A stretch of DNA of 64,000 nucleotides from a virus. Numbering within the stretch: position 1 is the stretch's first letter; every line of letters starts with the position of its first letter. Under the pieces are notes generated by a model. That model did not search any database and was not told the DNA's origin. It was given only the letters and a program-made list of their open reading frames with translations. Where the stretch lies: the IMG/VR virus record IMGVR_UViG_3300042934_000426, positions 32,001 to 96,000 of that record. One strand, 5' to 3'. A program made the position numbers and the translations under genes. Positions 8,065-60,400 of the stretch are shown in pieces.

Positions 8065-8862
8065 TCAAAATGTAGGAGCTAACAAATGGTCTTTGCCTAG
8101 TGCTTGAGCATGCCTTTTAATCCAATCTTTAGACTTATGGAAATACCCCTCTTCGGTGTCTTTTTCGAAACCGATAAAATTCCTATTCGTATTTAAACAG
8201 GCTATACCTATCGTCCCCGCACCACTTACATTATCTAAAATTAAAGACTTTCTACCTTCGGAAGAGTAGGTTTTGATAATTTTTTCATAGAGCTCAATCG
8301 GCTTTTGGGTAGGGTGAAATTTCCTAGCGTCATCATTATTCATAACAGGTATATCCCATACGCTTGTAGGGTAGCGGTCGGTTTGCCCACCACCACTAAC
8401 ACCTTGTTTTGTTTTTCCGTAGTTTGTGCCATCGCTTGTATTTTTTGTGTAACTATTAACAGGGCTATGCCCCGTTGTTTTTTGTGGATTATACACAGGT
8501 AGCTTTTTATAAAATACTAGAATAGCTTCATGGCTTCGAAGGGGCATTTTATTCGCATTTAAAAAGCCTGTGCTTTTATTTTTTTGCCATATAATATCGT
8601 AGCGAAATAATTTAGGATTACTCATAATGAGCATAGACGCAAATGGTTGAGTAGCTGTAAAAACAATTACTCCGTCGTCTTTTATAATCCTCTCGTACTG
8701 CTCCCAAAGTGGTTCAAAGGGGATAATAATATCCCATTTATTCTGCGAAGTCACTCCATAGGGTAAGTCTGCGATAACCAAATCAACAGTCTTATCATCA
8801 ATTAAGCACATACCTTTAGAACCGATACAGTCTTCATTATAAATATTATTTATCTCTAGCAT
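8065..8862 (-). CDS. N4-C/N6-A DNA methyltransferase (beta class)
   Basis: Catalytic DLPY motif before the SAM-binding LDNVSGAGT, plus HPTQKP; visibly AT-richer than neighbours. Confidence 0.88.
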   Translation of the reverse strand: MLEINNIYNEDCIGSKGMCLIDDKTVDLVIADLPYGVTSQNKWDIIIPFEPLWEQYERIIKDDGVIVFTATQPFASMLIMSNPKLFRYDIIWQKNKSTGFLNANKMPLRSHEAILVFYKKLPVYNPQKTTGHSPVNSYTKNTSDGTNYGKTKQGVSGGGQTDRYPTSVWDIPVMNNDDARKFHPTQKPIELYEKIIKTYSSEGRKSLILDNVSGAGTIGIACLNTNRNFIGFEKDTEEGYFHKSKDWIKRHAQALGKDHLLAPTF

Positions 8863-8914
8863 TACTACCAGCTCCTTTTCTACCCAACTACTAAAATTGT
8901 AGGTTTTGATTCTA

Positions 8915-11519: not shown

Positions 11520-14120
11520 CTACCTCACTTCTATATTGGCTTTCTTAAAGAGCGGAATCATATAAGCTATGTCGTCATATGTGACGTCGGTTGCTTCTTT
11601 CTTCTCTTTCTTCGGCTTCACCCATGCTGTACCGTCAGCGTCCCAGCTTACATCTAAGGCATGTTGCCATATCTTACCGACGGCTGGTTCGGCTATGATA
11701 GGTAGAATTTCCGTAAAGCCTTCGAGCGGTGCTTCCATAACCTCTTTTATCCAGCGTGCTCCTTCCGAAGCGTATTCGATTGGACATTCAGCCTGGATTT
11801 CATCGTGGATTTGCATAACCTGTTTGATATACGGTGCTTCCTTGATGGAACGCTTCTTAATCTCCACCATGGCTCTTCGGATGATATCACTTGCTGACCC
11901 CTGAATAGGTGTGTTCATGGCTTTGTTTTCTGCGGACTTCCGAATAAACTCTTTCGGGTGATTAATGTCAGGAATCGGTCTTCGGTTTCCGAAGAGGGTT
12001 TCCACATATCCGTATTCTCTAGCGAAGCTGATTTGACTGTCCGCATACCCTCTAATACCTGGGTAGGTCGCCATGTAGTTGTTGATGAATACTTTCGCTT
12101 CGTCTTTGGTCATACCCATTTGTCGGTCTTTGGATAAGCCGAATTCGGTCATCCCATAGACGATTCCGAAGTTAACTTTTTTGGCACGATATCGATACGG
12201 CTTAAACTTACTCTTTACTTCGTCGATGGTGCATTGTAGCTTGAATACTTCTCTTGCCACTAGGCTATGAAGGTCAATGTTATCGATAAAGGCTTGAATC
12301 ATGTTCTTTTCCTGGGCGAACCAGGCGAGAACCTTTAGCTCAATTTGAGAATAGTCACATCCGATAAAAATGGTTTCTCCGCTCAATTTATGCGTGATAA
12401 TCATAATGTTCGGACGGGTAAAAATGTTCTGCTGGGTATAGTCAGCGGTTAGGTCATAGCTTGGTGCTTCGAAGACCCCTCGAATTCCCATCGGGTCGTT
12501 ATCGGGTCGTGGGATATTCTGCAAATTCGGCTTCTTCGAAGATAGTCGCCACGTACTAACAAGATTGAGCTGGGTGTGCAATTTATTGGTGTCTTTTCGG
12601 CAAAACGGAAGCATACCATTCACATAGGTACTAAGAATTTTGGTGTACTTCGAACGCTCCTTCAGTACTTTCATAAAGGCGCTGTCGCCTTCGTAGCTGT
12701 CGATTATGAGCTCCATATTGTCTTTCCCTGTTCCAGGTATTCCTGTCGTCTTCGAGCGCTCTACGCCCCTTGTATCGACTTGTAGGACGTGGAAGAATAG
12801 CCATGACTTATGCTGAGGACTTCCCCAGGAAAACGGCTTCGGTGTCTTGATTTCTAAGGCTACAGGGTCACCACGCCATTGACCCATTCCGTAAACCCCA
12901 GCGGGTACAATGACGTTACCGTGGTCGTCGACGCCCGCATGGTCTTTCGTAACCTCTCGTAAGGCTTCGTAGAGTTTTTGTTCGATACAGTCGTCTTCCC
13001 AATCTCCCGCTTCGATTTGCTCTTCGGTCATGGTTTCTCTTCCGTATAGCGCACGAAACGCTACCCGCTCCATATCCCGAAGCTTATCGGGATTCACCCG
13101 CCAACCCGCTAACTCAATTTCTCCCAGGGTCATCATAAACGGGACATTCAGCTCGAAGTACACGTCGTCTAAGCCTTCAGCCACTAGAAGCGGGTAACAC
13201 TTTAGATACACACCCAGCCCCCAATCACTGTCGGAACAGGCATAGTCAACGCTATGCTTATCGACGGGCAATTCGTTAAACGTGCGGTAGCGGGATTGTT
13301 TCTTCGTCTTCGGAAGTCCCTTTTTTGCCCCCGACTTGTAGTATTCGCCAGGGATAGGTTCTTCCCATTCGTGCTTTCCAACCGTTTGCTTAAAGGTTTT
13401 AATATTATCTACATGAATCAATCCATGCACCCATCCATCTTTGTCTGCTAATAGAGCTTTTGTGGCGGGCTTTAATCCGACTTCGGTTTCTCCTTCTGCT
13501 CCGACGGTTTCGGGTAAGGCTAGTTGCTTCACCATCACCAACGTACAAATGATTTTTCGGGTCAACGTCTTCGGGAACATATCAATGCCGTGTAATAAGC
13601 TCCATTGGTGCTCGGCTTTGATGTTATGGGCAATGACTAGGATTTCAGGGTCTTCGAGAAGAGGTTTTAAGAACTCTTGCATGATGAAGTCTGTTTCCCA
13701 ATTCGCTCCGTAGCTAGTATGGTTCATAGGGAAGTAAAACGCCTGACCGATTTCCCAGGCTACCGATACCCCTACGATTTCGTGGTCTTGCGGGTCTTGG
13801 GTGTCGTCTTCAGGGTCACCGTTTGTTTCATAGTCGAAGCTAATGATTTTCTTCTTTCGAATTTCCTGAGCTATGGTTCGAAGCTTCGGAAGGTCATTTT
13901 TTCCGACCGCATGATAGCCTCTTCCTGGTAGCTCTACATTTAGTATTTGCTGGACTTCAGCGGTGCTTTCTGCCTGAGCGATTCGTGCCTTCGCTTGCGG
14001 ACTTAACTTCGTTGGGGTCGTGGTTCTACTTGGTGCGATTACTCGCTTCGGCTCTTCCCTCTTCGGAAGTGCCTTTTTCTTTTGGCTTGCTACCTTCTCT
14101 TTGAGCTTCGCTAGGCTCAT
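11520..14120 (-). CDS. polA: family A DNA polymerase with 3'-5' exonuclease
   Basis: Exo FDYET, AHNIKAE, YACSD; pol RLSSKKPNLQNIP, DYSQIEL, RAKKVNFGIVYG, NTPIQGSA, QIHDE. Confidence 0.95.
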   Translation of the reverse strand: MSLAKLKEKVASQKKKALPKREEPKRVIAPSRTTTPTKLSPQAKARIAQAESTAEVQQILNVELPGRGYHAVGKNDLPKLRTIAQEIRKKKIISFDYETNGDPEDDTQDPQDHEIVGVSVAWEIGQAFYFPMNHTSYGANWETDFIMQEFLKPLLEDPEILVIAHNIKAEHQWSLLHGIDMFPKTLTRKIICTLVMVKQLALPETVGAEGETEVGLKPATKALLADKDGWVHGLIHVDNIKTFKQTVGKHEWEEPIPGEYYKSGAKKGLPKTKKQSRYRTFNELPVDKHSVDYACSDSDWGLGVYLKCYPLLVAEGLDDVYFELNVPFMMTLGEIELAGWRVNPDKLRDMERVAFRALYGRETMTEEQIEAGDWEDDCIEQKLYEALREVTKDHAGVDDHGNVIVPAGVYGMGQWRGDPVALEIKTPKPFSWGSPQHKSWLFFHVLQVDTRGVERSKTTGIPGTGKDNMELIIDSYEGDSAFMKVLKERSKYTKILSTYVNGMLPFCRKDTNKLHTQLNLVSTWRLSSKKPNLQNIPRPDNDPMGIRGVFEAPSYDLTADYTQQNIFTRPNIMIITHKLSGETIFIGCDYSQIELKVLAWFAQEKNMIQAFIDNIDLHSLVAREVFKLQCTIDEVKSKFKPYRYRAKKVNFGIVYGMTEFGLSKDRQMGMTKDEAKVFINNYMATYPGIRGYADSQISFAREYGYVETLFGNRRPIPDINHPKEFIRKSAENKAMNTPIQGSASDIIRRAMVEIKKRSIKEAPYIKQVMQIHDEIQAECPIEYASEGARWIKEVMEAPLEGFTEILPIIAEPAVGKIWQHALDVSWDADGTAWVKPKKEKKEATDVTYDDIAYMIPLFKKANIEVR

Positions 14121-14132
14121 AGTTACCAGCTC

Positions 14133-14309
14133 CTATCTAAAATACCGTGGGTGAATGTCCTTTGACTGAAGAGTGTGCAAATTGCCTTCGTCGTCTTCCC
14201 CTATGAATTCTTGCGGTTTATCAGGACTATACCCACTTGGATTTTGTTGCTTAACGGTTACCCATAGACCACTTGCTAATTCCAATCTTACACCGATTTT
14301 TGGTAGCAT
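14133..14309 (-). CDS. small hypothetical protein (58 aa)
   Basis: Hand-translated MLPKIGVRLELASG...; RBS AGGAGCTGG. Confidence 0.5.
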   Translation of the reverse strand: MLPKIGVRLELASGLWVTVKQQNPSGYSPDKPQEFIGEDDEGNLHTLQSKDIHPRYFR

Positions 14310-27114: not shown

Positions 27115-27816
27115 TTACTGTTCGAATACTTCAGCTTGTGACTTCGGAATCCATCTTTCGAATTTTTGATTATTCAGTTTCTTTACAAACTGTTGGCGCA
27201 CCTTCTTTCGTTCTGCCTTCGACATACCTAAGACACCCGCTGGGTCATAGGGAATACCTAACCTATCCGCACACGTCGCACCGAAGCCTGTAACCATGCT
27301 AGCGGGCTCAGTGAGTTGCTTCGAACAACGAGCACAAAAGGTCATATCGGTTAGCATATCTGCATAGCCTTCGACTAACCAGGCTTTTGCGGATTCCGCT
27401 TTGACCTTCCCTGTAATGATACGGCTGTCAATTCCTAGGCTCTTCATAAGGAACGGCTTGATTTTAAGTGTGATGGTCGGGTAGTTACCAGCTTCGGAAG
27501 CCTTCTTCTTTTCTTCGTTTTGCTTCGTCCATTCTTTTTCACGTTCCATACACTTGCGAACCGCATTAGCCATGTTATCTGTGAATACAGCGCCTTCGTC
27601 ATGCTTTGCTTTCATATCCAATAGAAATTGAAACGGTTTTGTTTTCTTCGAAGCTTCTGTTAAGAATGTTCCGAATTCTTCGATTTGTTTTTGGTACGCT
27701 CCATTTAACTTCGCTTTTTCCATATCCTTCGTATAAGCGTCTGTAAGTGCCTTATCTGCCTTTGTAACCTTTTTCGCTACTTCTTCCTTATAAGTTCTTT
27801 TCGCCTTCAATACCAT
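27115..27816 (-). CDS. protein with DUF6011-like zinc finger
   Basis: CARCSKQLTEPAS...GFGATCA; start ATG 27816 after AGGAGCTGG. Confidence 0.6.
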   Translation of the reverse strand: MVLKAKRTYKEEVAKKVTKADKALTDAYTKDMEKAKLNGAYQKQIEEFGTFLTEASKKTKPFQFLLDMKAKHDEGAVFTDNMANAVRKCMEREKEWTKQNEEKKKASEAGNYPTITLKIKPFLMKSLGIDSRIITGKVKAESAKAWLVEGYADMLTDMTFCARCSKQLTEPASMVTGFGATCADRLGIPYDPAGVLGMSKAERKKVRQQFVKKLNNQKFERWIPKSQAEVFEQ

Positions 27817-27821
27817 GCTTC

Positions 27822-27907
27822 CCAGCTCCTTAAAATGGTTTTGTTTTAGGGGAGCTTTAAGGGCTCCCCTCATACTTAACATACATACGTCTTTTGTTTT
27901 GCTCTAC
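27822..27907 (-). promoter_or_regulatory. promoter-hairpin-RBS cassette, copy 3
   Basis: GTAGA-N13-CGTATGTATGTTAAG, GGGGAGC/GCTCCCC hairpin, AGGAGCTGG. Confidence 0.75.
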
Positions 27908-27910
27908 AGC

Positions 27911-28459
27911 TTAGAAGAAGAAGATTCCCAGGTCTTCTCTCCAATACGTGTCGTCCTGGTATGGTGTGAACATTCCTACGGCACGCTCTTTCGCTTCGAT
28001 ACCGCCATTCCACCATAGAATCGTTTGGAAGCCTTTGTACGTTCCCGAAGCGTGTAACATATCCTCTGCCGTGCGACTTAGTGTGCGGACATTCGCTTCA
28101 GCGTCTTCAGTCTTCGTGATTCCGAAGAATGGTTTGTAGTCCATATTGACCAGGTATAAGAAGTAGTCCATAGCGATAGCGTTGTACTGTGCTTTGTGCA
28201 TAAGAGCGATTCGTTGAATATCCATAGTCTTATTCTTTTTACGCTTGTTGTGACCCAGCTCGCTCATTTCACTTCTGATTTCTTGATACAGGTTGTGATT
28301 CTCTTCGATTTGACGCTTGATACGTGTTTCGAATGTTACGACGTTTCCAAAAGCTTCGGTTGTTTCTTGGCGAATCATATCCAGCACTTCGAATGAATGA
28401 ATCCCGTGATTGTTGTTTTGTGTGTCCAGGTTTTTGTAACGTAATGATGTTCTTGTCAT
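27911..28459 (-). CDS. hypothetical protein
   Basis: ORF with RBS. Confidence 0.6.
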   Translation of the reverse strand: MTRTSLRYKNLDTQNNNHGIHSFEVLDMIRQETTEAFGNVVTFETRIKRQIEENHNLYQEIRSEMSELGHNKRKKNKTMDIQRIALMHKAQYNAIAMDYFLYLVNMDYKPFFGITKTEDAEANVRTLSRTAEDMLHASGTYKGFQTILWWNGGIEAKERAVGMFTPYQDDTYWREDLGIFFF

Positions 28460-28464
28460 TTTAT

Positions 28465-28543
28465 CCAGCTCCTAGTTTTTATTTTGGGGAGCTTCGGAAG
28501 CTCCCTCATACTTACCATACATACGGCTTTTATTTTCCTCTAC
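28465..28543 (-). promoter_or_regulatory. promoter-hairpin-RBS cassette, copy 4
   Basis: GTAGA-N13-CGTATGTATGGTAAG, GGGAGCTT/AAGCTCCC hairpin, AGGAGCTGG. Confidence 0.75.
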
Positions 28544-28557
28544 GGTGCTTCGGAAGC

Positions 28558-28890
28558 CTATAAAGTCTTCACGTAGTCTAATCCATAATTGTATACAGTT
28601 ATAAGTCCATTTGTGCGTTTTTGTACCTTCACCATGATACGTTCATTGGTTACATGGATATTGAATAGGTAGCAATGGCTCTTTACGTAAGTTGTAGCAT
28701 AAGCAACGGAAATAATAAGCGTATCGTCTTTCTTTTCCTTTGTAGCCGTACCGTCAACTAAGAAATCGAGTACCGATTGAATCATTTGTTTTACTTCTTC
28801 CTTCGACTGAATCATTTTCCCTACAAATACCTTAATGAATAAGTCGTTTGCCATTTTCATAAAGTGTTTTTCTGTTATTGCTTTCATCAT
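28558..28890 (-). CDS. hypothetical protein
   Basis: ORF; start reassigned to ATG 28890 after RBS. Confidence 0.55.
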   Translation of the reverse strand: MMKAITEKHFMKMANDLFIKVFVGKMIQSKEEVKQMIQSVLDFLVDGTATKEKKDDTLIISVAYATTYVKSHCYLFNIHVTNERIMVKVQKRTNGLITVYNYGLDYVKTL

Positions 28891-28892
28891 AA

Positions 28893-28963
28893 CCAGCTCC
28901 TTTTTTGTTTTAGGGGCTTTCCCCCTCATTATTACCATACATACGTCTTTTATTTTATTCTAC
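28893..28963 (-). promoter_or_regulatory. promoter-hairpin-RBS cassette, copy 5
   Basis: GTAGA-N13-CGTATGTATGGTAAT, GGGG/CCCC hairpin, AGGAGCTGG. Confidence 0.75.
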
Positions 28964-28999
28964 GCCCTTCGGAAGTGTATTATCCACGTCAATAAATAG

Positions 29000-29035
29000 A
29001 AAAAGACCCATGCCTTCAGGGGTGGCATGGGTCTT
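29000..29035 (-). terminator. rho-independent terminator after HU
   Basis: AAGACCCATGCC/GGCATGGGTCTT stem plus T-run. Confidence 0.75.
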
Positions 29036-29066
29036 ACAGGGGTATTCGGGTTAGGTTAAGTATAGC

Positions 29067-29420
29067 TTACTTTAACGCGTCTTTCAATGCCTTACCAGGT
29101 TTGAACGCTGGATATTTACCACCAGCAATTTCAAGTTCTTCGCCTGTTTGTGGATTGCGTCCCTTTCTTGCTTGACGCTCACGCACTTCGTACACGCCAT
29201 GACCTATGTAGCGTACTTTATCACCATTTTGAAGAGCACCTAAGATAAGGGACTTCTCAGCGTCTAAGATTTTACCGATAACGCCCTGAGATACTTCGAC
29301 AGGGTGGTCACCCGCTTTTAGTTCTTCCTGAATGGCTTTGACCATATCCTCTTTACCGAAAATCGTTCCTTTTGTTTCGACTACTTCTACAGGTGCTTCT
29401 ACAGCTTTTTTCTTTGCCAT
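29067..29420 (-). CDS. HU/TF1-like histone-like DNA-binding protein
   Basis: [44 protein letters not shown]. Confidence 0.9.
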
Positions 29421-29486
29421 GATTCTTTATCTCCTTTGGGTCTATGCCCATATTGAATTCGGTAGCTCACCAGCTCCGTTAAGGCG

Positions 29487-29516
29487 ACTATATCACTCTC
29501 GGATAAGCTTCGTCAA
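29487..29516 (-). promoter_or_regulatory. sigmaA-type promoter for HU
   Basis: TTGACG-18 bp-TATAGT with extended TG. Confidence 0.55.
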
Positions 29517-29519
29517 TAG

Positions 29520-29563
29520 AAAAAGCTCCCGAAGCGTATTGGTGGGCTCTTCGGGAGCTTTTT
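29520..29563. terminator. terminator ending the late/lysis operon
   Basis: AAAAAGCTCCCGAAG/CTTCGGGAGCTTTTT inverted repeat. Confidence 0.8.
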
Positions 29564-29743
29564 CTATTTCTTTTCCTTTTTCGGTTTCATGAAAATACCC
29601 GCAATCGCTATACCCGCTAATGTAAGGTCAGCTATAGCGTTGGTTAATTCCCCAGGTACTTCGTAGCCTGTAGCATGCTTTACTACGACGGCAAGTGCGG
29701 ATATCACAGGAATGAGTAACGCTTTATTGAATGTATGCTTCAT
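29564..29743 (-). CDS. putative holin (59 aa, 2 TM segments, basic C-terminus)
   Basis: Hand-translated MKHTFNKALLIPVISALAVVV...LAGIAIAGIFMKPKKEKK; ATGA-coupled to the endolysin. Confidence 0.7.
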   Translation of the reverse strand: MKHTFNKALLIPVISALAVVVKHATGYEVPGELTNAIADLTLAGIAIAGIFMKPKKEKK

Positions 29744-47631: not shown

Positions 47632-47681
47632 TCTACCCAGCTCCGTTCTACATTTTGGTAATCAATTTCTCTTTCATTATA

Positions 47682-47714
47682 AAACAACCCCTACCAAAAG
47701 GGTAGGGGTGTTTT
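47682..47714. terminator. terminator after tail tube
   Basis: ACCCCTACC/GGTAGGGGT stem flanked by A and T runs. Confidence 0.65.
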
Positions 47715-47734
47715 CAGCTTCGGAACCTCTTACA

Positions 47735-48172
47735 TTAAATCGCTGTTTCCACTGTACCTTGGTCAGCGGATAAATAGTTCCATGTTGCGTTCTCGCCTGA
47801 AATAGCGTTTACTCGGAAGTTCTCGCTATAGTCAGCTAGTGAACAACCACGGTATACCACAACGATATCACCTGTAAAGCGGTCTGTGATTTCAATGTCG
47901 ATGACATTCATTTTCAGAATCCCTTCGCCTAGAACCGCTAGACCTAAGTCTTTTAGGGACTTCTTACGGATTTTAAACTTGTCGAAGGTTACGGAACCTT
48001 CGTAACGCAACGGTACGTGTTCCTGGGGCATAATGCTCCCAATTTCGTACTGTGCTTCTTGCCCAAAGGAACGTCTACCATCTACCGATTGAGCTCGTCC
48101 TACTTCTTGACCGCCAATTTTCAAACGAATCGTGTGACCCGCATGGGCTTGTTGGTTTGTTATGTTTGCCAT
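47735..48172 (-). CDS. tail tube protein
   Basis: VGRAQS, YEIGSIMPQEHV.LRYEG (Twort/SPO1-like tube pattern). Confidence 0.88.
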   Translation of the reverse strand: MANITNQQAHAGHTIRLKIGGQEVGRAQSVDGRRSFGQEAQYEIGSIMPQEHVPLRYEGSVTFDKFKIRKKSLKDLGLAVLGEGILKMNVIDIEITDRFTGDIVVVYRGCSLADYSENFRVNAISGENATWNYLSADQGTVETAI

Positions 48173-53279: not shown

Positions 53280-54761
53280 TTAACGGTCTACTGCTTTCAC
53301 TGTTCCGAAGCTAGTTGCCCCATAAGAAGGGTTGAATAGCTCACGGTTTGAGTTGATTCCTAGTTTACCGATGTTCTTGATAACTACGCAACGACGTGGG
53401 TTGTACACTTGAACCATACCGTAAAGTAGAATCATGAAACGCTCTGAAGCGGAAATTCTAGCAAGTGGAAGCTTCATTAATGGAGCTAATTGCTTGAATG
53501 TTAATACGTTTTCAGAATCGTTATCGATTAATACGGCTGTGTCCGTTCCAGGAATATCGAAGTTACGGTCAGCGATTGTTTGCGTTGCACCCGCCTTAGC
53601 GTCAGCCACTTCGAAGGCGAATAATGCTTTCGTAGGGTCTGAAGTTACGCCACGGTACACTTTGTAAGACTTCGCTACAGGGTCGCTTGTTACGCGATTG
53701 ATAAGGATGTCTACACGTTGTCCAGCCGTTACCGCTACTGAGCCTAATGCCACAGGAGCAGATTCCCCAGCACTATTCTTCGCTGATACGAAGTAGAAGT
53801 ATGTGCTAGCTGTATGCTTCGCTGTAGTGTCCGCTACCGCTACTAATTGAGAAGCTGGGAATGTTGGAATTCCTGGTGCTCCTTTTTGAGATTGAGCTTT
53901 CGGTGCGCCTTGTGGCTTCAAGAAAATGTTATTCACGAAGTTAATATTCGCTGTATTAGCTGAATATCCACGAACAGGTGCCCCTAATGTCATGCCGTCT
54001 GTCGAAGGCATAGCAATACGTTGACGAGCATATAATAACTTCGAGAAGTCCTTATGTGCTTGGTTTGTAATGTGAAGGTCTAAGTTCGCATTACCATAGT
54101 TGTCCGCTACGATGGTCGCTACGTCTTCCAACGTGTTTTCATCTAACGTTTCGCCACGCATATCAATAATATGTTGGGTTTCGTAAGGCTTGCCCTTAAC
54201 GAAGTCTGTGATTTGTTTGATTACACCGTCAAACGCTAATGGGTCTACGCTTGAATCAGCGAAGTAAAGCATGCGCTCTAATTGCTGAAGCAACCATAAT
54301 GTACCATTTTGAGATTCACGGGCAACAATGTCACCCACTGTGTTACGCACTAGCGTAGCTGGGTGTGTTACTACTCTCGTAGTCCCTAGGAATTTCACCA
54401 TTTGGGATTGACGAATGTAGTTGCTGTCCTCTTCGTTCGGTAAACCGCCTTCCATGAAGAAAGGAGAAGAATCGCCACCGAAGCTGTCTAATACGTTGAA
54501 TTCTTCAACAGTATTGAACGCTTGTTTTTTGCCGATTGTCTTCCAAAACTTAATGTGTTGCTCGCCAGCCGTTACAATCTTTAAAGTCCCCTCTAAAGAT
54601 TGTGGACGAAGAGCGGACATATCATTGTATGCACCGTTGCCATAAGCTTCTCCGTCTTGCCCTGTACCTAGGGCTTTGTTTAATTCTTCAAGGTTCTGCC
54701 AGTTATCGACACCAAAGCCTTGAACGTCTTCTTGACCACCATTTGGTAAAAAGTTACTCAT
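53280..54761 (-). CDS. major capsid protein
   Basis: ELNKAL, ALRPQSLE, EGGLP, FDG, YFYFVSAKN..ESAP, PLMKLPLA, VIKNI (SPO1/Twort-like MCP). Confidence 0.93.
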   Translation of the reverse strand: MSNFLPNGGQEDVQGFGVDNWQNLEELNKALGTGQDGEAYGNGAYNDMSALRPQSLEGTLKIVTAGEQHIKFWKTIGKKQAFNTVEEFNVLDSFGGDSSPFFMEGGLPNEEDSNYIRQSQMVKFLGTTRVVTHPATLVRNTVGDIVARESQNGTLWLLQQLERMLYFADSSVDPLAFDGVIKQITDFVKGKPYETQHIIDMRGETLDENTLEDVATIVADNYGNANLDLHITNQAHKDFSKLLYARQRIAMPSTDGMTLGAPVRGYSANTANINFVNNIFLKPQGAPKAQSQKGAPGIPTFPASQLVAVADTTAKHTASTYFYFVSAKNSAGESAPVALGSVAVTAGQRVDILINRVTSDPVAKSYKVYRGVTSDPTKALFAFEVADAKAGATQTIADRNFDIPGTDTAVLIDNDSENVLTFKQLAPLMKLPLARISASERFMILLYGMVQVYNPRRCVVIKNIGKLGINSNRELFNPSYGATSFGTVKAVDR

Positions 54762-54790: not shown

Positions 54791-56404
54791 CTATAAGCCT
54801 AATTGTTGTCTAAGCGATTCAGGTAATCCTAGGCTCTGAAGCGGTGTGCCAGCTTCGAATCTAGCAATAGCAGAACCAGGGATTTCCCCTTTATCGAAGC
54901 TCTTCATCAGAATATTCCCGATTTGATTTCGATTTAAAGGTTGACCACCTGTTTCGATAGACTTCTGAAGTGTTTGCACTTCACGCCCGCTTACGACGCT
55001 TTTGCGTCCTACGGGACGGTTTAACACTTCGTTAAGTGACTTTTCAAGCGAATCAATGCGTTCCGCTTGCGCTTCGATAACCGCTAAGGACTTTTGCATA
55101 GCTTCACCGAAGGTTGCAAGTGACTTAACAATCGTGTTTTGTTGCTTCGTTACACTTCCCATCGACTTTTCGAATCCTTCTAAATAGAATCCGATTTCGT
55201 CTGTTAAAGAAGTGAGGAAGTCAGACACTTCGAACGCTTGACCGTGTTCTTCCGCTAATGACTTCGAAAGATTCGTGCGAAGGGATTTCTCGACTTCTTC
55301 GTCGTCCTCTCCGTCGCCTTCGTCCCCTTGGTCGTCATCGTCCTGGTCACCTTCGTCACCTTGGTCGTCGTCGTCCTGGTTACCTTCGTCATCGTCCTCA
55401 TTCATGGACTTTTCAAGGTCTTCGTCTTCTTCGTTTTCGAAGTCGTTTTCGTCCTCTTCATTGTCCATTTCAAGAGATTTTTGAAGCTCTTCTAAGTCTG
55501 TGTCTAACAAACTAGAAAGAGTATTCTTCACGTTTTCAGGCATACTAGCACCTCCTATAAATTTTTGAATGGATTTCAATATTGGTAGCTTTTCAGCTAT
55601 ATACGAAGCGAAGTCTTCCGCTTCATCATAATCCAGCCCTTTTGATAACGCACAATGTAAGGCTTCGATTTCTATGTCGTCAGCATAGCTGGTTACGAAT
55701 GATTTCTTTAGTAGCTCCTGTTTAACGAAGCTTCGAAATAGGTTTAACCAATCGTCTTGCGGGTCAGGTGTTTTCACACCGCCTTCGAGCGACTGTGGCG
55801 TGACGGCATGAATGGCTCCTATGTCCATAGACTTGTCCATTTCAGGCATATCAATCGTCAACTCATGGTGTTTAGCGAAGGACTTCGCTAGTTCAGCCCA
55901 TGTAGTTGTATTGACAGGATTCATCGTTAAAACAACGTTCCGAAGGACAGATTTCACAATCTTTCCTGTTTTACGGTCACGCTCTTTGACGTTTCCTTCG
56001 ATTGACCAGCCCATTGTACGCTTCGTATTCGACTTTTGAAGGTCTTCGATAGTCTTTACCGCTTGGCGGGTTAGTTCACGCTGGGCAAACAATCTCCCTT
56101 TTACGTGGATTCCGTTCACCGACTTTTTAATGGTCGGATGTTCGAAGCGTCCTACCTTCACTTCTAAAGGTTCACCGATAAACTGATTCGGGCTATTCCC
56201 ATGCTCGTATTTTATCCAGCCTTTTTCTAAGAAGTAGGAGCAATCCATCCCTTCGGGGCTTATGCTATCATCCTCTTCGTCTGTATCATCCGAAGACATC
56301 ACACCTTGTACGATGTAATCACCGTTTTCATCTACCTCGATAGACTTTTCGATGGGTACATAGAGATTATAGGTATCCGATAAGACGTTAAATGGTTCGC
56401 TCAT
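54791..56404 (-). CDS. prohead protease fused to acidic scaffold
   Basis: VQGVMS..D...D, IKYEH, IGEP, GWSIEG, VLTMNPVN; acidic repeats; many xxKS motifs. Confidence 0.88.
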   Translation of the reverse strand: MSEPFNVLSDTYNLYVPIEKSIEVDENGDYIVQGVMSSDDTDEEDDSISPEGMDCSYFLEKGWIKYEHGNSPNQFIGEPLEVKVGRFEHPTIKKSVNGIHVKGRLFAQRELTRQAVKTIEDLQKSNTKRTMGWSIEGNVKERDRKTGKIVKSVLRNVVLTMNPVNTTTWAELAKSFAKHHELTIDMPEMDKSMDIGAIHAVTPQSLEGGVKTPDPQDDWLNLFRSFVKQELLKKSFVTSYADDIEIEALHCALSKGLDYDEAEDFASYIAEKLPILKSIQKFIGGASMPENVKNTLSSLLDTDLEELQKSLEMDNEEDENDFENEEDEDLEKSMNEDDDEGNQDDDDQGDEGDQDDDDQGDEGDGEDDEEVEKSLRTNLSKSLAEEHGQAFEVSDFLTSLTDEIGFYLEGFEKSMGSVTKQQNTIVKSLATFGEAMQKSLAVIEAQAERIDSLEKSLNEVLNRPVGRKSVVSGREVQTLQKSIETGGQPLNRNQIGNILMKSFDKGEIPGSAIARFEAGTPLQSLGLPESLRQQLGL

Positions 56405-56433
56405 AATTTCACCTCACTTTATGGCTTCATATG

Positions 56434-56521
56434 AAACAAGGACAATCCACAATACACCCCTGGCTAGGTTAGAGCTGGTAGAAACCTTGGCTAGAGTGGT
56501 TATTGCGGACTGTCCTTGTTT
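56434..56521 (-). other. long RNA hairpin in the leader of the protease/capsid operon
   Basis: 21-bp outer stem AAACAAGGACAGUCCGCAAUA/UAUUGUGGAUUGUCCUUGUUU. Confidence 0.7.
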
Positions 56522-56607
56522 GATATGGACTTTGTTGCCCTTTTTTATTCACTTTTGATTACTTTTGTTCAACTACTTTCGAGTTTACCATTAACTTCCG
56601 AAGAGCG

Positions 56608-56823
56608 TCAACGGTCATTTTTCATATTTAAAACGTGCTTCGTCTTCGGGGGAGCTTCAGGCATAGACCCCAACTGTAACGGGACGGCTACCTTCGTTTT
56701 GCACGTTGGGCATAGGGCGTGTGCTTCTCCATTATGGAATAATACCATTCGGCTTCGTAGCTTGACGCCCCCATCAGTGGTAGAATCCATTAGTATCCTA
56801 TTACAACTTGGGCAATGTATCAT
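56608..56823 (-). CDS. zinc-ribbon protein (Mu Com-like)
   Basis: IHCPSCNRIL...CPTCK. Confidence 0.65.
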   Translation of the reverse strand: MIHCPSCNRILMDSTTDGGVKLRSRMVLFHNGEAHALCPTCKTKVAVPLQLGSMPEAPPKTKHVLNMKNDR

Positions 56824-56871
56824 AAAGCTCCCCCTTTCCTGATTATAACAGTAATTTTCTGACTTCGGAAG

Positions 56872-57147
56872 TTAGTTTTTACCGATAGACTTCGCGACCC
56901 TTTCCAGGTGTTCGTTCGTGTAGTTTACCCTTTGACACGATTTTATCAAGTTTTTCCATACTTGTCGAAGCTTTTCTTTTCGCTCGTCCCCGTGTAGACC
57001 AGCGTCGGAAAGCTGGTTTTGGTAGCTTTGTAAGTTGTTGACGAAGTAGGTGTAACAACTTTGAGCTTCGGAAGTGCTTTTTATCTCTTCCTGAAAGGAA
57101 TGTTCGTCGAAAAGAAAGCTCGTATTATTCACTGAATTTTCTGACAT
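56872..57147 (-). CDS. hypothetical protein
   Basis: ORF with RBS AGGGGG. Confidence 0.55.
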   Translation of the reverse strand: MSENSVNNTSFLFDEHSFQEEIKSTSEAQSCYTYFVNNLQSYQNQLSDAGLHGDERKEKLRQVWKNLIKSCQRVNYTNEHLERVAKSIGKN

Positions 57148-57182
57148 AATAAGAATAACCCCCTATATAAGAGATATTTTTC

Positions 57183-57376
57183 ATGGGAAACCTTCTATTA
57201 CGTACGAGTTGGTACGTAGTAATGGTGTCACAGAGGTTTTGATTTTCAAAAATTATTTTTTTATTTTTCTTCACCTGAAGGATAAAAATAAAAAATTTTT
57301 CTCTTAGACTTCGAACGTCTGCATGCCACTATTACGTATCAACTCGTACGTAATAGAGGGTTTCCCAAAATTTTTT
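57183..57376 (-). repeat. element B: inverted copy of element A
   Basis: Reverse complement of 57183-57263 nearly equals 26917-26998; sites at 57196-57221 and 57330-57355. Confidence 0.9.
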
Positions 57377-57378
57377 AA

Positions 57379-57407
57379 GAAAAAGAGGGCTAAAAACCCT
57401 CTTTTTC
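57379..57407. terminator. terminator after the giant gene
   Basis: AAAAAGAGGG/CCCTCTTTTT inverted repeat. Confidence 0.7.
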
Positions 57408-57427
57408 AGAATTGTTTCTTTATCTTA

Positions 57428-60400
57428 CTAAAGCATTATAACCAGTTTTAGGGACTTCGCTACCGCTTTCCCTTGGGTTGTTCCACTTCCGACTTTTAAA
57501 TCACTTGTCTTCGGTGTTTTCACCTTCGGAAGTGTTTGGTTTTGCGCCCCTTTCGGCTTGGCACCCGCTTTACGCTTGGCGCTTCGTGAAAACCCTCTTC
57601 CTGTCATAGCACGGGCTGAAGCGGTATCACTCAACTTGTCTTGCTTCTCTAGTTGCTTCGTTGAATTCACCACATTCGAAATATTCTTCATTTTCGTATC
57701 CTGTGCGTCAAACATGAAGTCTTCGATGGTTCCAGGCATATGAAGCGATTCGACACGGGTTGTGTTGGCTCTGCCTACTGCCTTATGGGACTTCCAGCTA
57801 TCCGAACGTCTGACACGGGCGGTAAACTGTGCCATTTTCTGTGGGTTCCAGTCTTGGTCGAAGTGTATCATCATGTGAGCGTTTCCGAAGTCAACGCCTT
57901 CTTTACCCGCTGGTGATACCGTCGTTGCCCATAGGTGACCTTGGTTGTTCACGTAGTCCGCTCCGCTATCAGCCTTCGAACCACGGAAGCCTACCTTCGT
58001 ATCTTCACGGTCTGTCGCTTCCCCTGTGAACTGTCCATGACCGAACTTGTCGCCTACCTTCGAAGCCCACTTATGCAATTCAGGATGTCCCGTTTCAGGG
58101 TGTGCCAGGTCTTTTAGTACTCCGTCCACAATGTCCGTTCCGAAAGTAGTGTAAGAAGACTTCACCACTAGCTTCGGCATGATTTCAGGCTTACCAGCCT
58201 TACGTCTTTCGTTGTTCTCATGAGCTACTTCATCCAGGTACTTCGATACACGTTCCTTCAGGTAATCAGCCTTCGGGTTGTTGTGGTGAAGTGGAGCTAG
58301 AAGCTTTGGTGACCCGTCTTCGTTTTTCAGGTAACCGCCTTTGCCATCGCTTTCATAATAACGCTTGTGACCGTCCCCGTCTACTTCGAAAGGAATCGGC
58401 TCGCTCTTATCCTTTTTGTCCCCGCTTGTAGTCTGCTGTACTCCTGTGGCTTCGCTATCGAAGGCATTGGAACCAGGGACATACATTTTGCTCGCTAGTG
58501 GGGCGTTTAGGTACTTCTGAAGCTTCTGCATAGCGGTTAAATAGTTTTGGCTCTTCTTCCCGCTGGCATTATCGAAGCCCGTTGTAGAAGCTTGCTGAAG
58601 TTCCTGAAGCTTCGACTTCGGAAGGTACTTTTCCTGAAGCTGGCTGTACTCGTCGTACATTTTTTGCATGCTCGGCTTCATATTCGTCGGCTTGAACGTA
58701 CGAACTTCGTACTCTTCCCCGCTCTTCGCTTTGGCTGTGACTGTGCCTTCGTCGAAGTCGGTGATACTATGCTTCGTTCCATAGTAGTCGTTGGTCGCAT
58801 GGTCACGGCTTCGGTCTACTAAGTTACCTACGAAGTCATTTTGTGGGTTCGGATTGTCAGGCGTTCCACTCGCTCCTGATAAGTGTGGGAAGTGGATTTT
58901 CGAACCGTCGTTAAACTTTACATCTTCCCCGCCACGGAATTGAACGAAGTTGGCTAGAATGTCCCCTAGCTTACCCGCCTTCGCTGGGTTGACCCCGACG
59001 ATTTTCCCGTTTCGGTCTTTAATCATATACTCATTGGTGAATTCCTGACGTGAGCCTAGCTCATGTTTCCCGCCTGAAATGGTGTCAATTAAGCTGTGAA
59101 TCTCACGGGCGTCATTTTCCATTGGCGTTCCTGATAAGCCCCATACGTTTTTGAACTTGTCGGTCGCTTCGGCTAGAGACTTCCCGCGCTTCCCGCCCTG
59201 GTTCTTAAAGGCGTGTACTTCGTCAATCGTAATGTTATCGTACAATCCCGAAGCTGTTAACGCGTCTTTGTTTCTCATAAAGGTGTCATAGCTCATGATA
59301 TGGAAGTCATGGTCAGAATCGTGGTGAGCGTCTAGGTTGTTTAGCAAGTCCTTCGTATGAACGACTTCGTGCTCTTTACCCGCTTGACCCCACAGTTTCT
59401 TACCGTCTTCACCCTTCGTATGACCGCTGAAAGACGAAGACCCCCCGATAAACGCACCCTTCATTGAAGTGTGGTCGGTGATTTCCTTACCCCAATCGGA
59501 CATAATCCCCTTCGGAGCCACAATGAGCGTTTTCTTCGGCTTTTGTCCCTTAGATAATTGCTTCGCCTTATAATGGGCGTGAGCGACAACCCCTAGAATG
59601 GTCTTACCTGTTCCCATTCCGTGACCCGCAATACCACGCTTACGCTCGACTAGGTGAGCTACCCCTTGTAGCTGTGTGCCGTACAATCCTTGCTTTTCAT
59701 CCATAAGGAAGCTCTTCGGATTGAATTGAGCCTTGTAGTGGTCATCGAAGCTTCCGCGCTTCGTATTGACTTGTGACGGCTGGTAGTTTTCCTGGTAATA
59801 TTTACGTCCTTCGGGACTGTCAATATCACGGAATACTCGGTCTTTACTTCGGAAGTAGTCGGCTAGGTGCTCCTGTGCGTCATGTGCCATCGAGATACCG
59901 CTACCTTCACGGGAAAGTATGTCCCGAAGTTCTTCGAACTTATTGGTGGACACTTTCGCTATACCGTCCTTACTTACTGCAACCCCTTCGCTCGCTACTA
60001 CGTCCCGAAGGTGTTCAGGAACGTGCAAGTCTAGGTCTTTGGTGTAACTCGACTTGAATTGCTTCAATAACCCTTTGCCCGCCTTCGAGCGTCCTAAGAC
60101 CTTCTCTAAGCGTTTCATTTGGCTATCGTTTAATTCCAGGTCTTTCTTCAGGTTGCCTTCTTTATCGAAGGCGGTGGTGTTGATTTTGGCTTTCTTTAGC
60201 GCTTCGGCAAATAAGGTTTTCGCCTTTTCTGCTCTAGCTGTATCACGTTTGCCTTCCGAAGCTGGTTTGAATAGGTCATTCGTGTTCATACGGTGTGTAC
60301 CCGTTTGACCCACTTTCAATACGGCATTACCGCTATTGGATAAGGTACGCCCTTTTTCCTTCGCTGGTTTCAGCTCATTCTTATTGAATAGCCCGACAAG

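Follow-up and report, generated by a model that had tools for sequence, protein, structure and literature searches.

A conserved structured leader RNA upstream of the head protease gene in a clade of ~100-kb phages, with a loop complementary to a phage class of ribosome-binding sites

The window analysed here is a stretch of 64,000 nucleotides (nt), bases 32001-96000 of the IMG/VR virus record IMGVR_UViG_3300042934_000426, which is 104,950 bp long and has direct terminal repeats. Nearly all genes of the window lie on the minus strand. In a 203-nt gap between an open reading frame (ORF) for a 71-amino-acid zinc-ribbon protein and the gene for a 537-amino-acid head protease there is a long hairpin, which forms part of a conserved, previously undescribed structured 5' leader RNA. 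That this element is a regulatory RNA on the minus strand is highly probable. The explanation we prefer, at a probability of about 0.4, is a bifunctional leader that combines a cis-acting switch for the head operon with a trans-acting loop directed against a class of the phage's ribosome-binding sites (RBSs).

Structure and conservation of the leader

On the minus strand, positions 56434-56521 of the window fold with an energy of -42.4 kcal/mol (z -7.8), compared with -40.0 kcal/mol (z -6.0) on the plus strand, and none of 200 shuffled sequences folds as well. The hairpin reported there by a first-pass annotation, made from the sequence alone, is therefore real, and it extends further than described: its arms, 56428-56454 and 56501-56527, make up the longest and strongest inverted repeat of the window. 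The 12-nt apical loop that the same annotation had described on this strand is also present, reading UCUACCAGCUCU from 56482 to 56471.

Searches guided by the protease recovered 19 viral and 9 metagenomic loci, and a motif scan added one further lineage. In all members of the ~100-kb clade the protease gene is preceded by one fixed series of parts, namely TTGAC, 17-18 nt and a TG-extended -10 element, a variable stretch, the box GGGCAACGAAGUCC, a spacer of 5-11 nt, the long hairpin, and a Shine-Dalgarno (SD) sequence of the type GGAAGGUGGUGA. Exactly one copy of the leader, always at this site, was found by nhmmer in each of six genomes. A cmscan search against Rfam, with E values up to 1, matched nothing at the element, whether in the window's copy or in those of six relatives.

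RNAalifold, applied to an alignment of 15 distinct leaders (A2), predicts a basal helix of 19 pairs, with compensatory double changes in 16 of them. The helix amounts to about two turns of near-perfect duplex, mostly Watson-Crick and with one interruption. An extra arm in seven lineages produces a three-way junction, and the apical stems are almost wholly different between lineages. The unpaired core CCAGCUC, within an apical loop of 11-16 nt, is invariant in all 12 leaders of the apical alignment, and a 13th leader (L018, with the same apical part as L008) brings the total to 13 of 15. Lineages with proteases of only 51-78% identity keep this core, on stems that change from one lineage to the next.

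The strand of the RNA and its promoter

Folding energies give a mixed answer on strand, with the plus strand folding better in some relatives, and a strand call based on them was dropped in favour of pair-type counts and a promoter scan. When the aligned basal helix is read as minus-strand RNA it contains 11 G-U or U-G cells against 2 A-C or C-A cells, and a second, alternative hairpin (P0, see below) contributes 5 further G-U cells. A sigma-70/sigmaA-like promoter stands before the leader on the minus strand (Table 1); the coding strand of the whole genome has just two others like it, and next to the hairpin it is the sole sigma-70-like site. No promoter-like site was found on the plus strand within 55900-57500. 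The promoters of the relatives are alike (TTGAC, 17-18 nt, TGnTAnnnT), and the promoter is of a near-consensus host type. The conserved box, too, can be understood only as minus-strand sequence. Because the pair counts, the minus-only promoter and the orientation of the box agree, the functional molecule is taken to be the 5' leader of the protease messenger RNA (mRNA). The uncertainty of orientation expressed in the first-pass annotation was fair on energy alone, and is resolved to the minus strand by the 11 to 2 count and the promoter.

The spacer of the promoter holds a copy of the quasi-palindrome CTTCSGAAG. This motif occurs 127 times in 105 kb, where fewer than one copy would be expected, on both strands, between genes and inside genes in several frames. 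Another copy lies at 47715-47723 of the window, and the motif is present in the relatives too. It has the look of a DNA site that some protein binds or modifies.

An alternative hairpin and a probable switch

The box that precedes the long hairpin can pair with the hairpin's 5' arm to form P0. The pairing joins GGGC to GYCC and GUCC to GGAC, with a 1-nt bulge and a 6-nt internal loop, AACGAA, that holds the invariant CAAC-A. The pattern of the box has three coding-strand matches in G000, the genome to which the window belongs, and the other two are inside genes or at a gene start. In most leaders P0 is the minimum-free-energy structure of the isolated 5' fragment, at -6 to -10.7 kcal/mol. Across A2, 97.5% of the cells are paired and five of the eight pairs show double changes. 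Examples are AUCC/GGAU in L008, GGAC/GUCC in L221 and AGGC/GCCU in L222 and L226, and in L006 the pairing is wholly replaced by AUAC/GUAU. The covariation score of P0 was matched by none of 500 shuffles, and sliding the partner by 1-3 columns left only 28-48% of cells paired.

P0 and the basal helix both use positions 56507-56515 and are thus mutually exclusive. A pair of folds that covary and exclude each other is the hallmark of a regulatory switch, and the leader is probably a conformational switch of this kind. P0 would form first during transcription and compete with the ~100-nt long hairpin, and a factor bound to P0 could decide whether the long hairpin forms. The output might be read-through as opposed to a stop at a U-rich tract, or else cutting of the basal helix by a double-strand RNase. 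In most leaders the GC-rich basal stem gives way to a tract of the UUGUUU type that has 4-6 U within 9 nt; the tracts of L006 and L008 are poor.

Two other ideas about this region were rejected. In a translational variant of the switch the freed 3' arm would sequester the SD sequence of the protease gene; its pairing probability was 0.34, against 0.40 for shuffled arms. The box and 5' arm were also considered as a mimic of the 3' end of 16S ribosomal RNA (rRNA), since by eye they resemble GAAGUCGUAACAAGGUAGCC; a profile of the leader, run with nhmmer against a Paenibacillus rRNA operon, produced no significant match, the best having an E value of 6.2 and lying at a site other than the 3' end.

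A class of ribosome-binding sites in the phage

The RBS class in question, here called class A, has the core GGAGCUGG, and its fuller forms are written (A)GGAGCUGG(UA), AGGAGCUGGUA and AAAGGAGCUGGUAA. The sequence GGAGCTGG occurs 20 times in the window, always on the minus strand and mostly 5-9 nt before start codons, where 1.2 copies would be expected. The whole genome has 42 copies, and a count made without a gene caller places 34 of them 3-9 nt ahead of a start codon that begins an open frame of at least 40 codons. The four letters CTGG are enriched after RBS-positioned GGAG in all six genomes (34/83, 26/149, 7/94, 11/135, 6/112 and 3/60), and in G000, at 34/83, they are the commonest by far. 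The complement of the loop core, GGAGCUGG, is the top RBS extension in G000, G001, G006 and G004, the second in G002, and over-represented in G003. The use of the motif by many non-structural genes, as first annotated, is thus borne out by the 34 RBS positions and by the enrichment at gene starts in six genomes.

About a quarter of the phage genes, mostly non-structural, carry the class motif. In a crude gene call of the whole genome, AGGAGCUGG(UA) with a start codon ~3 nt further on precedes arrays of small genes and the genes for DNA polymerase, DNA methylase (N6/N4 type, window 8065-8862), dUTPase and similar proteins. The GGAG-based class stands against a GGGGGU late class within the genome. 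A second RBS dialect, AAGGGGGU, which avoids GGAG, is found on the virion genes of G000 and G001, and the relatives G002-G004 have canonical GGAGG on theirs. The class motif is private to the phage: three Paenibacillus genomes of 6-7 Mb contain only ~16 AGGAGCTGG-N3-7-ATG sites each, and among the matches listed no use of GGAGCTGG as an RBS was seen outside the clade, the other dense matches being Gly-Ala-Gly coding repeats. Copies of GGAGCTGG inside the protease genes of relatives were considered as a conserved target and rejected, as they encode a conserved A-E-L-A and are absent in the window.

The tail assembly chaperone is the only gene of the structural module with a class-A RBS. The exact motif is present at this gene in four of six genomes, and a wobble-compatible GGGUUGGC in G002. 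Upstream of the chaperone gene, 47645-47736 (minus strand) contains a conserved CTTCSGAAG and a GC-rich hairpin, ACCCCUACC...GGUAGGGGU, running into UUUUAUAAU (terminator plus -10-like); this arrangement of CTTCSGAAG, hairpin and TATAAT is the same in six genomes. The small early-type genes at 83-92.5 kb and 44-50 kb of coding-oriented G000, which lie in part beyond the window (for example window 27800-29600), each have their own cassette, made up of a promoter-like box GTAGA...TATGGTAAGTAT, a 5' hairpin of the form GGGG...CCCC, in many cases with CTTCCGAAG inside it, an A-rich spacer and a class-A RBS.

Predicted pairing of the apical loop with the class

The first-pass annotation had noted that the loop is complementary to this motif, and had given a 10/10 match to the methylase RBS. 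The match is confirmed, with 10 consecutive Watson-Crick pairs between the loop and GGAGCUGGUAG, and the single exact plus-strand copy of GAGCTGGTA in the window lies inside the loop. The proposal had also tied the function of the loop to its conservation alongside the RBS motif, and CCAGCUC is kept in six of six genomes with the GGAGCUGG motif. So extensive a complementarity is far more than chance would give, which keeps an anti-RBS role in play as an attractive reading. The class motif AAAGGAGCUGGUA differs by three letters from the perfect complement of the Paenibacillus 16S 3' end, AGAAAGGAGGUGAUCC, and all three match the loop; judged on these sequences, the motif is tuned to the loop and not to 16S. 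Predicted duplexes in G000 are bimodal, at -15 to -20 kcal/mol for the class and -3 to -12 kcal/mol for most other genes. In G004 the loop, UUUACCAGCUCCU, lengthens the match to 12-13 bp. In G000, G001 and G004, no dinucleotide follows GAGCUGG more often than UA (30 of 81 sites); these are the genomes whose loops have UA before the core and which have most of the sites.

From the observed structures, conservation and complementarity we infer the following as to transcription timing, processing and any effect on translation. Minus-strand transcription of the leader would start at the host-type promoter, a short way ahead of the genes for head protease, capsid and tail. The folded long hairpin would expose its 11-16-nt unpaired C-rich loop, in which CCAGCUC would serve as an antisense seed that pairs over 8-13 bp with the phage RBS motif (A)GGAGCUGG(UA) and blocks 30S binding, and the loop-RBS duplex might be marked for RNase III. 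The targets would be ~34 mostly non-structural genes, including those for DNA polymerase and methylase and the small-gene arrays, and this gene class would be damped once head-operon transcripts accumulate. That the loop acts by pairing with the GGAGCUGG class is a tentative proposal. A bolder and more doubtful one is a private 'RBS code', in which early and middle genes would carry AGGAGCUGG(UA) and structural genes would avoid it, the loop of the head-operon leader would read the code so that transcription of the structural operon shuts down the earlier class, and the switch between box and 5' arm would decide when the hairpin is formed or released.

Several observations weigh against the bifunctional leader. 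Two leaders, L221 and L222, have other apical loops on a leader in which promoter, box, P0 and basal helix are all retained, so the conserved core function does not require the loop motif. A 6x6 matrix of loops against target sets revealed no lineage-specific co-variation or optimum; since the core is invariant on both sides, it is itself uninformative about seed-target co-variation. The loop is retained in G002, which has just 6 RBS-positioned targets, and in G003, which has 3; most early-region RBSs of G002 are GGAGCGUG or GGAGUGUU. Shuffled C/U-rich loops pair moderately with SD regions, and some reach similar counts at a cut-off of -12 kcal/mol. Each head-operon transcript supplies a single leader, which would have to titrate dozens of mRNA species. 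The near-consensus host promoter means that the leader could be made early; its 'late' expression is an assumption from gene content, and the description 'processed' is an assumption too. On the side of the switch, the terminator scan does not flag the hairpin site, and the U-rich tract is weak, interrupted, and absent in L006.

The anti-RBS idea survives the conservation test and is not proven, nor is it the whole story. Because the P0 layer persists in L221 and L222 without the motif, the loop is not the only or the core function of the element. What stands of the class-wide silencer proposed in the first-pass annotation is a conserved loop with complementarity beyond chance; the leaders lacking the motif, the few targets in G002 and G003 and the lack of co-variation in the flanks speak against an element that is such a silencer and nothing else. 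The alternative offered there, a decoy for a protein that binds the motif, needs a plus-strand RNA and is disfavoured by the strand evidence.

The two leaders with other apical loops lie at L222:940-1058 and L221:543-622. The L222 loop (UGGCUAUCCUUUUUU; UUUUUUUGGCUAUCCUUUUUU) is pyrimidine-rich and complementary to AAAGGAUAGCC, and its sequence predicts a different RBS code, with the class AAAGGAUAGCC, in an L222-type phage. Among the matches listed from a scan of viral contigs for AAAGGAUAGCC there were scattered single matches at background level, and an L222-type phage is seemingly absent from the collection scanned.

Alternative explanations

The main alternative is a leader that acts purely in cis, as an attenuator or processing element with a protein-binding loop. 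A phage factor would bind P0 or the CAAC-A loop, and perhaps the apical loop as well, in the manner of a protein-dependent attenuator or antiterminator, and would set read-through into the ~25-kb structural operon, with the RBS complementarity incidental or secondary. Such a leader would account for two exclusive structures that share one strand and are both supported by covariation, for the overlap of P0 with the 5' arm of the downstream hairpin, as in antiterminators, for the U-rich tract (UUGUUU and similar) past the GC-rich basal stem in most leaders, and for the retention of the switch in L221 and L222 without the loop motif. The small zinc-ribbon gene is syntenic just upstream, and a near-consensus host promoter before structural genes would need a post-initiation timer. 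However, other nucleotides break up the U tract, L006 and L008 have a poor one or none, the site is not called by the terminator scan, the hairpin is far larger than known attenuator terminators, and the zinc-ribbon protein has generic matches only and was not found in 80 kb of G003. A purely cis-acting leader also leaves unexplained an invariant 7-nt core that is the exact complement of the top enriched RBS extension in six genomes, and we regard it as rather unlikely. A further alternative, distinctly improbable in our view, would be an RNase III processing and/or mRNA-stability element as in T7 and SP82, where the basal helix is cut, the head mRNA is separated from upstream RNA and its half-life is set, and the loop has no pairing partner. 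A near-perfect helix of ~20 bp would suit RNase III: the basal helices are about two turns long, almost all Watson-Crick with few G-U pairs, the element is placed between operons, and the optional extra arm and variable apical stems would fit a requirement for structure only. That explanation does not account for the invariance of the loop core and of CAAC-A or for the covariation of the alternative hairpin, and the transcript does not begin with the hairpin: a variable leader of 11-55 nt lies between the -10 element and the box.

Readings in which the minus-strand RNA has no role fare much worse. A palindrome acting at the level of DNA (a protein site, cruciform, origin or packaging signal) would agree with the mostly Watson-Crick pairs, with folding on both strands and with a genome that is rich in the DNA-level quasi-palindrome CTTCSGAAG. 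Yet the sequences of the arms vary freely while their pairing is kept, G-U pairs are tolerated on one strand only, and the alternative P0 pairing is an RNA-type feature. A hairpin arising by chance is opposed by the shuffles, none of which folds as well, and by its fixed position between promoter and RBS in all relatives; a DNA palindrome or a chance hairpin is taken together as very improbable. Least probable of all is a functional antisense RNA from the plus strand, whose loop AGAGCUGGUAGA would mimic the RBS motif as a decoy. It would fold almost as well, and better in some relatives, but the plus strand has no promoter-like site in the 55900-57500 region, the 11 to 2 ratio of G-U to A-C cells holds for the minus reading, and the conserved promoter, box and P0 make sense only on that strand.

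Comparison with known systems

RNAIII of S. aureus has C-rich hairpin loops that bind the SD regions of several mRNAs and works with RNase III (PMC2837412). With RNAIII, other Firmicute small RNAs (sRNAs) with C-rich loops and CyaR of E. coli, the leader shares an unpaired C-rich loop complementary to several SD regions; a feature of the RNAIII type is that targets have strong unstructured RBSs and that duplexes can recruit RNase III (PMC2837412). The candidate seed differs from that type in lying inside the 5' leader of a phage structural operon and not in a free-standing sRNA, and its target motif extends past the SD sequence into a phage-private CUGGUA, found in about a quarter of the genes. 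There is no sequence or Rfam relationship between the leader and this type. The shut-down of early and middle mRNAs as a class in T4 acts after transcription through translation-initiation regions: RegB cuts GGAG in early SD sequences, and RegA competes with ribosomes on ~30 mRNAs (PMC3014915). The GGAG and GGGGGU classes seen here echo that logic, although RegB and RegA are proteins, whereas the candidate effector here is an RNA loop whose specificity would come from base pairing.

The leader resembles those of Firmicute RAT-terminator systems and the lambda nut site (boxA-spacer-boxB) in having a short upstream element that can pair with the 5' arm of a hairpin, in the order box, variable spacer and hairpin, and in the adjacent gene for a small basic protein. 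It departs from them in its hairpin of 90-160 nt with an elaborate apical domain and a weak U tract, in the lack of any recognised member of a known antiterminator protein family and of sequence similarity to boxA. The c4 RNA of phages P1 and P7 is a leader-derived antisense RNA whose loops pair with a ribosome-binding region and block translation; it acts on sites in its own transcript (icd-ant) and keeps the immunity of a temperate phage. The present leader is likewise a phage operon-leader RNA with loops that could pair with RBSs, but the genes it might target number dozens and lie elsewhere in a genome of virulent type, and the covariance model of c4 (RF01695) found no match in it at E values up to 1.

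Genomic setting

The leader stands at the head of a structural module in which the capsid gene is followed by sheath, tail and lysis genes (Table 1), and a SNF2-type protein of >2150 amino acids is encoded upstream of the locus. The capsid protein is ~37% identical to those of SPO1-like phages (Herelleviridae), no DNA similarity to named phage records was found, and homologues of the N-terminal domain of the protease, 65-75% identical, are encoded in Paenibacillus chromosomes. These chromosomal homologues and the strong use of SD sequences, together with the SPO1-like capsid, point to a Paenibacillus-like Firmicute as host, and the clade probably consists of uncultivated ~100-kb myoviruses of such hosts. 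In two Paenibacillus chromosomes (L354:6001-8441 and L355) a 313-amino-acid homologue of the protease domain alone is followed by a 492-amino-acid ORF of the size of the capsid gene. The leader RNA is absent from these two elements, which hint at the host and at a head module that is prophage-like or domesticated.

By its position only, the zinc-ribbon protein is a candidate partner of the leader. It contains two CxxC pairs (CxxC...CPxCK) and a basic C-terminal tail; searches returned generic zinc-ribbon matches below the cut-offs and no relative in PDB, and no copy of its gene was found in the 80 kb of G003 sequence. A relationship to the Mu Com type of translational activator was rejected, since the 'translational regulator' family phrog_6417 matched at only E 0.0095, through 2 of 10 members. 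Elsewhere near the locus, a weak Rfam match to a plant microRNA family at 57194-57357 on the plus strand has 39 bits where the gathering score is 211 and is almost certainly an artefact, and beside it a terminator-like hairpin lies at 57379-57407 on the same strand, in the gap between the giant gene and small genes.

Table 1. Positions of the leader, its parts and associated features in the window
Feature	Position	Strand	Remarks
Class-A RBS GGAGCUGGUA of the DNA methylase gene	8866-8875	-	Predicted loop duplex -20 kcal/mol
Class-A RBS of the DNA polymerase gene (11520-14120)	14124-14133	-	Predicted loop duplex -18 kcal/mol
Class-A RBS of the tail assembly chaperone gene	47637-47644	-	Only one in the structural module
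Major capsid gene	53280-54761	-	phrog_752, 3e-81; next after the protease gene
Head maturation protease/scaffold fusion gene, 537 amino acids	54791-56404	-	First gene past the leader; protease phrog_1028, 8e-42
SD sequence GAGGUGA of the protease-scaffold gene	56409-56415	-	~19 nt downstream of the hairpin and not sequestered by it
Long hairpin (basal helices and apical hairpin)	56428-56527	-	From fold and inverted-repeat scan; core first annotated as 56434-56521
Apical 12-nt loop UCUACCAGCUCU	56471-56482	-	Core CCAGCUC at 56472-56478
Alternative hairpin P0	56507-56540	-	Box paired with the 5' arm of the long hairpin (GGGC/GUCC and GUCC/GGAC); internal loop AACAAA
Conserved box GGGCAACAAAGUCC	56527-56540	-	14 nt; CAAC-A invariant in the 15 leaders of A2
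Sigma-70/sigmaA-like promoter (TTGACG, 18-nt spacer, TG-extended TAAACT)	56582-56611	-	Overlaps the stop of the upstream gene
CTTCSGAAG copy in the promoter spacer	56595-56603		Same place in the promoters of most relatives
Zinc-ribbon protein gene, 71 amino acids	56608-56823	-	Directly upstream of the leader in most relatives (alignment A3)

Implications

The leader is a well-supported new structured RNA motif, with two covarying exclusive folds, invariant unpaired nucleotides and no Rfam family. The known temporal shut-off of early phage genes uses proteins, such as RegA, RegB, repressors and sigma replacement. If the loop does read the proposed RBS code, the leader would be an RNA-only counterpart of RegA and RegB of T4 and a new way of timing the lytic programme, by a dedicated Shine-Dalgarno extension that is read by an RNA loop. 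It would then also follow that phages can evolve a private code for translation initiation.
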